Shown here: positions 4,493-45,725 of the stretch, in pieces
How the letters are laid out: the number at the start of each line of letters is the position of its first letter
How positions within the stretch are numbered: position 1 is the stretch's first letter
Assembly (NCBI GenBank): GCA_951406725.2
Contig: OX597820.1
Span: 55,490,001 to 55,554,000 of the forward strand
Length of the DNA: 64,000 bases
Direction of reading: 5' to 3'
DNA from: Octopus vulgaris
Lineage: Eukaryota
Position numbers and translations under genes: made by a program
Notes under the pieces: generated by a model
Told to the model about the DNA's origin: nothing
The model's database searches: none
Seen by the model: the letters and a program-made list of their open reading frames with translations, nothing else

Positions 4493-4736
4493 ATGTAATA
4501 CCAAGTGCAACCAAAAGTATCAGTGGGGAGGCGGGGCTCGTGGGGTCCGAGCTAAACCCGCACCCACTCCACCCGTAATGTCTTCCGGTCTGTCCTATCA
4601 CTCGATTTCTGTCCATTTATTGTAATTCATGAAAATTTTTAAACCCGATTTATTGTAAAAACCCATTCGTTTGTCTGACCCCATCATCAGATTGTATTGT
4701 CCCATCTGTGTTCGCCCCTTGTGGGTAATAATAAAA

Positions 4737-5055
4737 CAACATGGAGGAAAGCACCTTCGAAAAGTGTCTTGGTGCGACTATGATAGATATCTAATAAGAG
4801 GCGGTAAATTCGCCACAATAGAAGCAAGGTTTGAGTCAACGGAGCGTGCAAGGCAGTACTCGACTCGAACTTGCAAAGTGGAAATATTTTATTTTTACCT
4901 TTATATCTGGGATGTAGGACGTCCCGGAAAAAAAATTAATAATCCTCCCCACCCAGAAGTAGAGGTAGGCTTGATTGTAGCCACACTTCTATACAAGAGG
5001 GAGGACAAGATACAATTGAACGAAATTACAAGAGACGGGCTAACAATTCCAGTCT
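4737..5055 (+). pseudogene. Degenerate ORF1 fragment of a related, older Tx1-like element
   Basis: Frameshifted translation MEESTFEKCL..RGGKFATIEARFESTERA..LPLYLGCRTS..PEVEVGLIVATL aligns to ORF1 IEEKKIENCL..RGKKYGTVEVRFTSEEVA..LPLYKGKRTS..PEADAEVLVAAV. Confidence 0.75.
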
Positions 5056-5282
5056 GTTATATATTTTGAGTATTGTTATCACTACCGATATCAAGATATA
5101 ACTTTGTATTTTGTATTTTATGTGTAGATGTATATATATATAGATGTACATGTAATATGTACACATATATATACACATACATACATGCACTAGCACTATG
5201 ACCCGGCATCGACGGGTCTTTAATGCAAGTATATATATACATGTATGTATGTACGTACGTATATATATCTTTTTTTATCTTT

Positions 5283-5715
5283 TTGGTGTTTCAGCTCAGA
5301 GCTGCGGCCATGCTAGGGCATCGCCGTTTTGCTACACTGTTATTACTGAGAGCCTCCTCGAATATATGACACTTGGTGAAGAATGAAGTTTGATGCTGCT
5401 ACCCTCATTTGCACCTCTTGCCATGAGGTAGGTTCATCTGGGACTCTCAACATGAAGAGGTCCAGTTTTGCTTTGAAAACACCTATATCCACTTTATGTA
5501 GGTCTCTCAGGATCTTTGGGAAAATATTAAAAAGCTATGGGCCCCTGAAATCCAGGCTGTTGCAGTAACTGGTCTTGAGGCACAAGAGCATTGCTGGGAT
5601 CTTTGGCACTGTGTAGTGTCAACCCATTCTGGCATTGGTGCGGCTTTCAATGCCAAAATTTGGTACTATTTCTTCTAGGATCTACCAGATGTGTATTACT
5701 GCATACTTCTTCCAC
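5283..5715 (-). mobile_element. 3' fragment of CR1-clade LINE (same family as 15536..18510)
   Basis: Collinear, diverged similarity to 15570..16000 including the terminal CAGCTC..GAGCTG hairpin. Confidence 0.8.
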
Positions 5716-5737
5716 CTTTACTTCAGGGAGTAGTCTT

Positions 5738-6070
5738 CTGGCCCCCGTGCCGGTGGCACGTAAAAAGCACCATCTGATCGTGACCGTTGTCAGCCTTGCC
5801 TGGCCCCCGTGCCGGTGGAACGTAAAAAGCACCATCTGTCCGTGGCCGTTTGCCAGCTCCGTATGGCACCTGTGCGGGTGGCACGTAAAAAGCACCCACT
5901 ACACTCACGGAGTGGTTGGCCACGGACAGAAGGACATCCAGCCGTAGAAACACTGCCAGATCAGACTGGGCCTGATGCAGCCTTCTGGCTTCACAGACCC
6001 CAGTTGAACCGTCCAACCCATGCTAGCATGGAAAGCGGACGCTAAATGATGATGATGATGATGATGATGA
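5738..6070 (+). mobile_element. RTE-type LINE 3' UTR fragment with (GAT)n tail
   Basis: GTGCCGGTGGCACGTAAAAAGCACC subrepeats; CCAACCCATGCTAGCATGGAAAGCGGACG; (GAT)n. Confidence 0.8.
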
Positions 6071-6123
6071 TAATATATATATATATATGCATATATATAT
6101 ATATATATATATATATATATATA

Positions 6124-6560
6124 TCATCATCATCATCATTTAACGTCCGCTTTCCATGCTAGCATGGGTTGGACGATTTGACTGAGGTCTGGCGAACGAG
6201 ATAGCTGCACCAGACTCCAATCTGATCTCGCAGTGTTTCTACAGCTGGATGCCCTTCCTAATGCCAACCACTCCAAGAGTGTAATGCCACCAGCACGAGG
6301 GCCAGTAAGGTGGTACTGGCAATGGCCACGCTCAAATGGTGCTTTTTATGTGCCACCTGCACAGGAGTCAGTCCAGCGGCACTGGCAACGACCTCGCTCG
6401 AATGTTTTTTTCATGTGCCACCAGCACAAGTGCTAATAAGGTGACACAGGTAACGATCACGCTCGTATGGGGTTTTTAATGTGCCATCGACACGGAAACC
6501 AGCTTGTTGCTCTGGCAATGATTTCACTTGTATGGTACTCATAGCGCTCCACTAGCATGG
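6124..6560 (-). mobile_element. RTE-type LINE 3' UTR fragment
   Basis: Reverse complement of the same family, starting with (CAT)n TTAACGTCCGCTTTCCATGCTAGCATGG. Confidence 0.8.
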
Positions 6561-6566
6561 ATGCCT

Positions 6567-42435: not shown

Positions 42436-42545
42436 TAAAAAAACAAGACACGTGAATATTTTTATGTGTGTAGTTTGTTTGAAACAGCAAAATTTCCAAA
42501 TCCATCATCAATGTTTCTAGACCTTCAAGGTCTCATCTTTTAGAT

Positions 42546-42676
42546 CAGTCATGGGCAAACTGCAGCCTGTGGGATTTTCTGAAAGGCACATCAAACGAAT
42601 GGATTTTCTTTAGTAGTGCAGCCCATCTGATGATGACCCATGTAGCCCACTTTTCAAAAACGGATGTCCATGTCTG
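42546..42676. mobile_element. hAT-type MITE (131 bp)
   Basis: TIR CAGTCATGGGCA/TGTCCATGTCTG; 8-bp target duplication TTTTAGAT on both sides. Confidence 0.8.
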
Positions 42677-43694
42677 TTTTAGATGAAGTGATGTTAGCAT
42701 GCATGTTGCTGCCTTATAAAACTGTAGACAGAGCCAATGAGATGGGTGTTGATATTAAATTAATGCTGGAATTAGAATTGTTGTCAGATTAATACATCAA
42801 TTACATGTTTGTGAATAATGAATGTTATCCAACTTAATTTAATATTGTGAGGTGTTATGAGTATAATGTCCATCACTGATCATCTACTTTTGTGGGGAAT
42901 TATCTGTACTATAAGCATGTTGTTTATAAATGTTTTCCTATCATGTTTTATAATATGATTTGTGATGTGCATTGCAACTGCTCCTTGGAAATGCATGAAC
43001 AGTTGGCAAAAATTGCTCTATTTGTACCATTATTATCATCATCATTTTAACATCCACTTTTCCATGCTTGCATGGGTCCAACAGAGTTTACAGAGGCAGA
43101 TTCTTTATGATCAGATGTTCTCCCAGTTGCCAACCCCATCTGTTCCCAAACAAGATAATATATTTCCCTATGGCCAGATATGTTCTTGCAGAATGTTGGA
43201 AATGAATGACACTGCTAGTATGACAGTGGAAATCATTTTAAACTATCACAAAAAGACTCGTGCACACAGACACACAACAGGCTTCTTTCAGTTTCTGTCA
43301 ACCAAATCCACTCGCAAGGCTTTGGTCGCCCCAGGGCTATGGTGGTAGACATTTGCCCAAGGTACCACACACTGGGACTGAATCCAAGACCACATGGTTG
43401 GGAAGCAAACTTCTTACCACAAAGCCAAATCTGTGTCTACAAATAGTCACACACCAGCACCTAAACACAATCACGCCAGTATGAGTAACACCATAGTTAA
43501 AATCACAGACTGTACAACTTTCAGTACTTGCGATCAAATTTGAACATCCCATTGTTTATGCATGTTATTTATAGGTTTGAGTGCTAGTAGTTTGTTGTTG
43601 GTAGGCATGTTTTTAATCTGGGCTCTTTTTTTCTTAGTATATTATTAATGTTAGTTTATAGTTAAGTATAATACATTTTATGCTCTATTTTATG

Positions 43695-44276
43695 CGTGAC
43701 CCGACTTTTCGTCTGATATCACTTTTGGTCCAATGTCTTTTTGTCCAATGACTTTTTGTCCAATTTTAAATAAAATCTTTAGAAATCAAAGTGAATGTCA
43801 TGTGAATTCGAAGTGAACACAGCCTTCTTTTCTCATATCTCCAGTATTCTTTTCCTAGTTTTGTATTGCTTGAATGAAAATCGTAGATGTAATTACTTTC
43901 ATCAACTACTTTTCTTTTGCATTTGGTTGATACTATAAACTTGTCATTTCGGGATGGGTAAATAAAAATATGTACACTAAATTTGCTGTACACTCTATAC
44001 ACAGTACCATACTTAAGGGAGAGAAAGAAAAGGAGAAAGTAAAACTGTTAACAGAGAAGGAAAAAGAACGATAGTAACGATCCTATAATGAGGCTCGTTA
44101 TAGTTCTGTGAATATATTATTAGAGATATTTCACCTTGCTTTCTAAAGAGTTTATTTAAAATTGAACAAAAAGTCGTTGGACAAAAAAAAATGAATGAAC
44201 AAAAAGACGTTGGACGAAAAGATGTGGACAAAAAGACGTTTGACAAAGAGACGTCGGACGAAAAGATGCAGCACCG
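43695..44276. mobile_element. Foldback/Mutator-like non-autonomous element with modular TIRs
   Basis: TIRs built of ~15-bp units (TTGGACAAAAAGACG)n plus TTTAAATAAA-TCTTTAGAAA; flanked by 7-bp direct repeat TTTTATG. Confidence 0.72.
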
Positions 44277-45032
44277 TTTTATGAGGTTTTTAAAAATGTG
44301 TGCATCTATCCTATAGTTAGTTCATTTGTTTAAAGTTTGTTTTTCCATGCTAGCATGGGTGTAGACAGATATTTATCTGGGGAAGGATTTTCTTCCCATT
44401 GCCAACTTTTACCTGTTTTTTAAGTAAGGGATATCTTTATTTCACAGGTCCTTGAACAGGCAGAATGACTGTGTTAAGATCAGTACTGTTTTCCTGTGGT
44501 AGTGATAAGCATGGACTATAGAAACATGAATGTACATTTGTGCATGAGCACACATACATATGTGACAGACTTCCTGTAGTTTGCACCCACCAAAATCCCT
44601 CAGTTGGCACTGGTCGACTCAGAACTGTACTCAAAAACTGCTTGCATTTGTTACTGTATATGCATTTAATTCATGTAAAACACTTTGTGCACATGCATTA
44701 TCATCATCAATAACATTTACCCCTTTAGCATTTAAACTGGCCATATCTGACCAAATTATAGTACCTGATGTTCAAAGTGACCAGATCTGGCCTCTCACAC
44801 CTATCCTGTAATGTAATTTTTAAACTAAACAATCACATTATCAAAATCTAGAACTTATAAGATAAAGCATTATTAATTCAAAACAATGTGAATAAATTAC
44901 CATTATATTTGACAGAATAATATGAATGCTAAAGGTTAGTTTCCATATTCCATGCTGGCATATGTTGGATGATTTGACAGGATCCAATAGGTCCAAGGAT
45001 TGCATTGTGTTCCAGTGTCTACTTTGGTATGG

Positions 45033-45170
45033 TTTCTTATTTCTTTATTGCCCACAAGGGGCTAAACACAGAGAGGACAAACAAGGACAGACAAACGGAT
45101 TAAGTCGATTATATCGACCCCAGTGCGTAACTGGTACTTATTTAATCGCCCCCGAAAGGATGAAAGGCAA
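45033..45170 (-). mobile_element. SINE B 3' part with Tx1-like tail
   Basis: Reverse complement of TTTAGCCCCTTGTGGGCAATAAAGAAATAAG. Confidence 0.82.
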
Positions 45171-45306
45171 ATTATTTCTAGCTAATTCTTTCCAAACAAT
45201 GCCAATCAATAAAGTCAAGGCTCAATTCAGATTTCTGCTGTGTTAAACTGATAAGGGATAAATTTTCCTCTGGAAAGGATGCTAGCTTATGTAAATCTCC
45301 TTACAA

Positions 45307-45725
45307 GAGGTGGCGAGCTGGCAGAACCGTTAGCACGCCAGGCGAAATGCTTAGCGGTATTTCGTCTGCCGCTACGTTCTGAGTTCAAATTTTGCCAAGG
45401 TCGACTTTGCCTTTCATCCTTTCGGGGTCGATTAAATAAGTACCAGTTACGCACTGGGGTCAATACAATCGACTTAATCCGTTTGTCTGTCCTTGTTTGT
45501 CCTCTCTGTATTTAGCCCCTTGTGGGTAGTAAAGAAATAGGTATTTCGTCTGCCGTTACGTTCTGAGTTCAAATTCCGCCGAGGTCGACTTTGCCTTTCA
45601 TCCTTTTGGGATTGATTAAATAAGTACCAGCTACGCACTGGGGTCGATATAATCGACTTAATTTGTTTCTCTGTCCTTGTTTGTCCCCTCTGTGTGTAGC
45701 CCCTTGTGGGCAGTAAAGAAATAAG
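45307..45725 (+). mobile_element. Young SINE B head-to-tail dimer with Tx1-like tails
   Basis: Full copy 45307..45540 then 5'-truncated copy 45541..45725; CpG-rich; each ends GCCCCTTGTGGG.AGTAAAGAAATA. Confidence 0.88.

Follow-up and report, generated by a model that had tools for sequence, protein, structure and literature searches.

Which long interspersed element (LINE) copies the short interspersed elements (SINEs) of octopus? The question is raised by 64,000 nucleotides of Octopus vulgaris DNA (contig OX597820.1, positions 55,490,001 to 55,554,000), referred to here as the window and numbered from its first base, in which a LINE of the L1/Tx1 type stands at the start and copies of a SINE family follow. 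An initial annotation had proposed that one SINE subfamily, B, shares its 3' tail with this LINE and that the two form a recently active pair. The origin of the tail in an L1/Tx1-type LINE is supported by the present analysis and is widened, through the closest relatives of the LINE, to the A tails of the same family. The locus is best explained by an octopus SINE family whose alternative tails probably derive from one Tx1-type LINE lineage, and which would be copied by the protein of that lineage's second open reading frame (ORF2). A likely motor can be named in this way for an abundant octopus SINE.

The match between the LINE end and the tails of the three B copies is real. The LINE segment at 4668-4735 and the minus-strand copy at 45033-45100 lie where the initial annotation placed them; the SINE end that it gave as 45480..45538 is present but one base shorter (45480-45537), and the copy at 45660..45722 shares the quoted string except for an exact match to its first ten bases. 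End-to-end alignment of the B tails with LINE positions 4668-4739 opens a single 11-base gap, starts 5 bases past the end of the SINE core and gives 50, 50 and 52 identities in 60 aligned bases. When LINE positions 4480-4800 were compared with the window by BLASTN, the three B copies were the only matches at E<0.05 (40/49 identical, E 9e-6, in two copies; 34/41, E 4e-4, in the third). The local scores of the B tails against the LINE end (43, 49 and 49) were reached by 0/5000 dinucleotide shuffles per copy, with shuffle maxima of 31, 35 and 32. Among 1004 tiles of the window, taken with 44.8-45.8 kb left out, the LINE 3' untranslated region (UTR) scored highest, the runner-up scores being 31, 31 and 26. 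The LINE tail is 83-87% like the B copies, whereas these are 92-96% alike among themselves. With 13-17% divergence from B and an indel, this LINE copy is probably not the donor of the B tail but a sibling of that donor.

By its ORF2 domains and its separate upstream ORF1, the LINE is a non-long-terminal-repeat retrotransposon of the L1/Tx1 group. ORF2, first described as intact, is open over 1131 aa containing an endonuclease, a reverse transcriptase (RT) and a zinc finger; Pfam searches found PF03372, PF00078 and PF13966 only, with no RNase H, and the best PDB match is LINE-1 ORF2 (E 6.7e-65). The LINE as a whole cannot be called intact. Its 5' end lies off-window, leaving ORF1 without about 97 codons, and the homology of ORF1 to P0037, a 450-aa relative from Octopus sinensis, runs successively through frames 1, 3 and 2, which indicates two frameshifts, arising from decay or assembly error. 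The element is young-looking, with an observed/expected CpG ratio of 0.87 versus 0.34 elsewhere in the window, yet not intact as assembled. Annotated proteins of O. sinensis and O. vulgaris share 75-89% identity with ORF1, which by itself points to an Octopus host, and the nearest Atlas clusters of ORF1 are CCHC/ZCCHC3-like. This LINE lineage also accounts for the Octopus proteins P0036-P0041, labelled uncharacterized or "EPM2A-interacting 1-like", which are products of its ORF1.

The SINE head and core recur in 20 window copies of about 80-230 bases, which sum to about 3.7 kb, or 6% of the window; the count omits a head fragment of 23 bases at 28561. The copies are short, noncoding and interspersed, with 5' truncation and target-site duplications, as befits SINEs. 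Clear duplications of 16-18 bases accompany 4/20 copies, all of type A. By eye, the head carries A- and B-box-like motifs. Neither ARAGORN nor Rfam called a tRNA, small nuclear RNA (snRNA) or any other family, whether in the SINE head or across the window, and comparison by eye with bivalve sequences in the supplements of PMC4824008 and PMC4758252 revealed no likeness to the Meta or CORE domain. Immediately after the core the tails part into A1 (eight copies), A2 (five) and B (three), while two copies are decayed and two tailless. The B copies are CpG-rich, as had been claimed (7.2-7.8 CpG per 100 nt in the three B copies versus 0.6-5.1 in 14 A-type copies), and identity is 92-96% among B copies and on average 73-75% among A copies; judged by their sequences, B is the younger subfamily. 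All three B copies lie within 700 bp (45035-45726) and probably represent about two insertions. A possible 7-base duplication, the best found for B, flanks the dimer at 45308-45726, and recombination between target-site duplications (PMC11481361) could be the source of this dimer.

Relatives of the LINE were obtained by scanning prokaryotic genome contigs with an ORF2 alignment. The scan yielded 75 loci of eukaryote-type retrotransposons (80/99 matches kept), which are evidently host DNA binned into metagenome-assembled genomes (MAGs). At sixty loci (L001-L059 and L061, on 16 CAXXMW01 contigs of one MAG assembly, recorded as a bacterial genome) elements with 38-42% identity to the window ORF2 form head-to-tail arrays; the loci overlap, and with two sub-lineages among them they are not to be counted as 60 independent cases. 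The arrays, whose ORFs are open, have a period of about 6.4-6.8 kb; their short spacers are contig-specific and recur at an array end (L022). In an RT tree, for which 22/75 loci and 11/35 proteins were taken, the window ORF2 falls in a 12-row clade (support 100/99) with its closest ORF2 proteins, P0001-P0003, and eight sampled array elements. Its RT is 35-39% identical to that of U1/U2-flanked Keno-like elements and 25-28% identical to plant L1. The RT motif D-Q-x-K-A-F-D-R-V, which is typical of Tx1, is common to the window ORF2 and Keno-like loci and differs from human L1. Membership in the Tx1 clade proper is likely at most, as the tree has no named Tx1 reference and an open base. The 75 loci supplied no further B copies: the LINE UTR and two SINE copies, used as BLASTN queries, had no match there at E<=1.

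The array elements connect the A tails to this LINE lineage. An AGGC-CTNGT-GCC hairpin lies 3' of ORF2 in 58/58 array loci with enough downstream DNA. All 104 of its 104 occurrences stand 18-22 bases before AATAAA, with an A-run of only 3-4 and no poly(A). Similarity to the array unit stops at AATAAA in L014, L022, L024 and L050, which marks the 3' end of the element. When compared with the L019 spacer, 11/13 A tails match on the hairpin (p<=0.015), and five control 3' regions gave 0/85 tests at p<0.05. The B tails match the window LINE in 3/3 tests and the relatives in 0/15; the A tails match the window LINE in 0/13 at p<0.05. A weight matrix built from 14 distinct relative ends only, with an anchoring pattern picked after the SINE motif was known, ranked 127,930 positions and had 12/13 A tails among its first 14, of which the two remaining rows are one-base shifts. 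A covariance model of 12 relative ends also recovers 12/13 A tails. More distant relatives (27-33%) abut U2 or U1 snRNA genes, and no matching hairpin was found in the U1/U2 elements tested. Some of these elements end directly before U1 (L067:~4740, L068:6573 and L074) and others directly before U2 (L071, L072 and L075:6702), in some cases in arrays with 5S rRNA genes. The U2-abutting pattern is that of Keno (PMC4640811), and U1-abutting apurinic/apyrimidinic (AP) endonuclease elements are not listed in the accessible portion of that paper.

A small predicted hairpin is common to these ends: CTTGT with a 4-pair stem occurs in every tail type and at the LINE end. The stem is GGC/GCC in the A tails and CCC/GGG in the B tails and the LINE, so that the changes which separate the predicted A hairpin from the B hairpin are compensatory. 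The window has 316 CT[ACT]GT sites; 10 of them have a 4-pair stem closed by C-G, and 9/10 are at the LINE end or in SINE tails. In an alignment of 27 ends, pairing holds in 92.5% of cells, and 4/4 pairs show double changes. The covariation score of these ends was reached by 0/500 shuffles and lies above all slid controls, and RNAalifold predicts the same 4-pair stem. The copies at 41790, 23964 and 49978 have no recognisable loop and were left out of the alignment, so the pair counts cover 17/20 SINE copies. The A tails stop about 12 bases after the hairpin, without AATAAA, and their retention of the hairpin points to a role beyond polyadenylation. Two marks of a stringent SINE/LINE pair, a shared 3' sequence and a compensated stem-loop, are present, with a stem that is weak in energy and unbridged by the covariance model.

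The insertion pattern provides further evidence. Five head-to-tail pairs occur among the 20 SINE copies versus 0.087 expected, with a maximum of 2 in 20,000 placements (SINE intervals set by hand). Related LINEs also stack head-to-tail. In L024 and L026 a full 3' end is followed by a 5'-truncated next copy, like the junction at 4735 in the window, where the abutting ORF1 piece of a related LINE matches by tblastn at 33% over 81 aa (E 1.8e-7) and its DNA alignment begins at about 4730. No RNA-gene target was found for the window LINE or for 7 scanned array loci; insertion beside related copies was seen instead. The A clusters cannot be explained by tandem duplication alone, because neighbouring tails differ and the A copies are on average 73-75% alike. 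Tandem insertion around a duplication has been described for the Tx1-driven SINEU-3 (PMC4494074). SINEs also lie tail-to-tail at 42216/42319 (about 60 bases) and head-to-head at 54146/54159 (13 bases), close pairs suggesting local insertion hot spots.

A mechanism can be proposed on this basis. The SINE would be transcribed from its tRNA-like RNA polymerase III head. ORF2 would recognise the 3' hairpin (the stringent type) instead of poly(A), nick the target and reverse-transcribe the SINE RNA by target-primed reverse transcription. Turnover of LINE subfamilies would have been accompanied by template switches at the border of core and tail, through which the SINE gained new tails, B presumably being the youngest tail swap, and fresh insertions may favour the duplicated site beside an earlier copy. 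That the tails originate from this Tx1-type lineage and are mobilised by it can be proposed with good confidence, while a strict dependence of mobilisation on the hairpin is somewhat favoured. Since the A tails match the ends of the LINE's relatives and carry compensated hairpins, the whole SINE family, rather than B alone, likely depends on one Tx1-type lineage, with swapped tails.

Several observations weigh against this account. The LINE is known from one copy whose 5' end lies beyond the window, and its 3' boundary is therefore not fixed by a target-site duplication; the frameshifts of ORF1 lie near A-runs at about 750 and about 900, as assembled. B consists of three clustered copies without a clear long target-site duplication. 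The similarity of the window LINE end to the relatives' ends is not significant (p 0.18-0.57). In addition, the relatives' covariance model gave 25 hits at E<=10, and these include neither the B tails nor the end of the LINE, so the link between A and B rests on loop, pairing and position. The double changes in the stem trace back to some three or four events instead of 16. The stem is short, and 0/13 single-sequence folds are significant (z -1.63 to +1.70). The predicted minimum-energy fold of the LINE pairs the hairpin region otherwise, and AATAAA lies 3 bases past the stem in the window LINE versus 18-22 in the relatives. The initial proposal of a recently active pair is upheld only in part: the youth of B, the open ORF2 and the CpG ratio of the LINE agree with it, whereas the frameshifted ORF1, the greater distance of the LINE tail from B than of B copies from one another and the confinement of B to 700 bp do not.

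Recognition could also be relaxed. The tails would still come from this lineage, but any A-rich RNA end would serve, and the hairpin would be kept for 3' processing or stability. Such relaxation is known for mammalian L1 (PMC4176376), and the weak stem and the position of the hairpin beside AATAAA agree with it. Nevertheless, poly(A) ends are absent from the SINE copies and from the related LINEs alike, and the A tails hold the hairpin and end shortly after it without AATAAA, so that this explanation is unlikely, though it merits consideration.

The segment at 4668-4735 might instead be the 3' piece of a SINE-B-like copy that was inserted behind the LINE or served as its insertion target. The single LINE copy, the start of homology almost exactly at the SINE core/tail border, the failure of the relatives' model at the LINE end and a short A-run at 4657-4661 just before the segment are compatible with such an event, and Tx1 elements target other repeats (PMC4494074). 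Yet the segment is 83-87% like B and has an 11-base indel, against 92-96% between B copies, although the LINE looks young, and no SINE core lies upstream of it. Furthermore, the sole AATAAA between the ORF2 stop and the flank sits within the segment, and the ends of related LINEs have a corresponding hairpin of their own. The segment most likely belongs to the LINE, and its origin from a SINE is improbable; this alternative is weakened rather than closed, because BLASTN of the 64-kb window found the LINE body only once. It would in any case leave the match of the A tails to Tx1-type ends standing.

It is very improbable that the tails are relics of this lineage in a SINE that now moves by means of CR1, L2 or RTE. 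In O. vulgaris both RTE and CR1 are abundant and have been active recently (PMC13282606), and a CR1-like LINE occupies 15.6-18.6 kb of the window. This LINE was rejected as the tail donor, as 0/17 tails match its 3' region at p<0.05, and the 16-18-base duplications and head-to-tail stacking of the SINEs resemble Tx1-type arrays and the Tx1-driven SINEU (PMC4494074). Finally, chance similarity of GT-rich, low-complexity ends, conceivable for a short, pyrimidine-rich match, is rejected as having a negligible probability by the 0/15,000 dinucleotide shuffles that reach the scores, the top rank among 1004 tiles and the independent matrix match of the A tails.

Coordinates of the LINE and SINE features are given in Table 1. 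The window also contains other repeats. The LINE on the minus strand at 15636-18556, which from motif likeness we take to be CR1-like, encodes endonuclease and RT in two overlapping frames, and a further 3'-part fragment lies at 5288-5717. A Tc1/mariner-type transposase (8773-9796, minus strand, two frames) has HTH_Tnp_Tc3_2 and DDE_3 domains. A second, larger repeat cluster (5734-6565, 28585-29320 and about 24 further segments) has internal 62-66-base tandem units and may comprise several SINE families. Five copies, each about 320 bases long, make up a third SINE-like family (13689-14024, 31184-31513, 38016-38362, 46240-46559 and 61329-61648) and by eye resembles the CORE domain of the bivalve supplement (PMC4824008). 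An inverted pair of segments like miniature inverted-repeat transposable elements (43705-43795 and 44130-44266) contains 15-base tandem units.

Table 1. Positions of LINE and SINE features in the window (TSD, target-site duplication)
Feature	Position	Strand	Remark
LINE ORF1, predicted RNA-binding domains and CCHC knuckle, 5' part off-window	1..1081	+	75-89% identity to Octopus proteins
LINE ORF2, open, 1131 aa, L1/Tx1 type	1097..4492	+	AP endonuclease, reverse transcriptase, C-terminal zinc finger
LINE 3' UTR ending in AATAAA (4730-4735), without poly(A) tract	4493..4735	+	relatives end alike
LINE 3' segment common to SINE tail B	4668..4739	+	11-base extra piece inside predicted upstream hairpin
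Predicted terminal LINE hairpin, 4-pair stem, CTTGT loop 4718-4722	4714..4726	+	
Decayed 5'-truncated ORF1 piece of related LINE, abutting LINE 3' end	4730..5030	+	tblastn
SINE, tail A2, loop 14817	14627..14842	+	
SINE, tail A1, loop 20785, 18-base TSD	20760..20978	-	
SINE, B-like CpG-rich head and core, tailless	23798..23964	-	91-95% to B copies
SINE, tail A2, loop 34285	34110..34308	+	
SINE, tail A1, 5'-truncated, loop 36069	36045..36170	-	
Three SINEs head-to-tail: A1, decayed A2-like, A2	41533..42237	+	similar 17-18-base duplications between and around
SINE, tail A1, 5'-truncated, loop 42319	42295..42433	-	
SINE, tail B, 5'-truncated, loop 45058	45035..45171	-	
SINE, tail B, full length; core to 45474, tail 45475-45539, loop 45519	45308..45539	+	
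SINE, tail B, 5'-truncated, head-to-tail behind 45308 copy, loop 45703	45540..45726	+	
SINE, tail A1, 5'-truncated, 16-17-base TSD	47590..47768	+	
SINE, tail A2, hairpin closing pair changed on both sides (C-G to T-A)	49057..49272	+	missed by profile searches
Short decayed SINE fragment, no recognised tail	49900..49978	-	
Decayed SINE, B-like loop, broken stem	52970..53147	-	p 0.03 vs LINE UTR
Three SINEs head-to-tail: A2, A1, A1	53518..54146	-	
SINE, tail A1, 16-base TSD	54159..54334	+	

Tail sharing with Tx1-type LINEs is rarely reported in animals. A literature search, with most subscription papers and Repbase, Dfam and SINEBase outside its coverage, found no animal SINE that shares its 3' tail with Tx1, and, with most subscription papers outside coverage, no LINE partner named for any octopus SINE. 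The LINE/SINE pair may already be annotated in Repbase, Dfam or SINEBase. Three octopus SINEs derived from tRNA, OK, OR1 and OR2, were reportedly described by Ohshima and Okada in 1994, and the present family may be one of them. SINEs make up 11.6% of the genome in Octopus, its recently active SINE families are mostly unclassified, and 80 L1-Tx1 families are on record for O. vulgaris (PMC13282606). A bivalve survey names CR1, CR1-Zenon, L2 and Nimb as partners, and "Tx1" is absent from its main text (PMC11481361) and from the accessible text of PMC5786205. In surveys of 2012-2013, L1-clade LINEs, the recognised exception in this respect, accounted for 3/58 pairs with SINE/LINE tail sharing, all in plants or algae, and the proposal that stringent recognition is ancestral in the L1 clade rested on plant and algal cases (PMC3472496, PMC3747384). 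It is tentatively suggested, at slightly less than even chance, that an animal Tx1-type lineage kept or regained stringent recognition of a CUNGU hairpin in place of poly(A), builds head-to-tail arrays by inserting next to its earlier copies and drives a major octopus SINE, which would have followed successive LINE subfamilies through tail swaps at a fixed breakpoint; if true, this would be an animal case of the state proposed as ancestral. Since the stems are compensated in nature, the matched set of LINE ends and SINE tails from an animal also offers a ready test of RNA choice by an L1-type ORF2.

The octopus case resembles several known systems. In eel UnaSINE/UnaL2 and in bivalve V- and CORE-SINEs with CR1/L2, a tail and a short compensated stem-loop are likewise shared (PMC4176376, PMC4824008, PMC11481361), and one SINE body likewise carries several tails; the partner here differs in being of the L1/Tx1 type. 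Sharing of L1-clade tails is known from maize (ZmSINE2/ZmSINE3 with LINE1-1_ZM) and Chlamydomonas (SINEX-3_CR with L1-1_CR), where the last 45-80 bases of the LINEs are conserved and, as here, a conserved loop tops a variable compensated stem (PMC3472496, PMC3747384). Those pairs belong to plants and algae and have the loop UCU, whereas the octopus case is animal and has the loop CUNGU. Keno and the snRNA-targeting Tx1 elements share the AP endonuclease and the RT motif with the window LINE (PMC4640811), but its clade, unlike Keno, shows no snRNA or tRNA target and no poly(A) and stacks head-to-tail. The crocodilian SINEU with Tx1-Mar is likewise an animal SINE with a presumed Tx1 motor and tandem insertions that sandwich a target-site duplication; SINEU differs in its snRNA heads and poly(A) tails, and its link to Tx1 was deduced from shared targets and heads, no LINE with its 3' end having been found, rather than from a common 3' tail as in octopus (PMC4494074).

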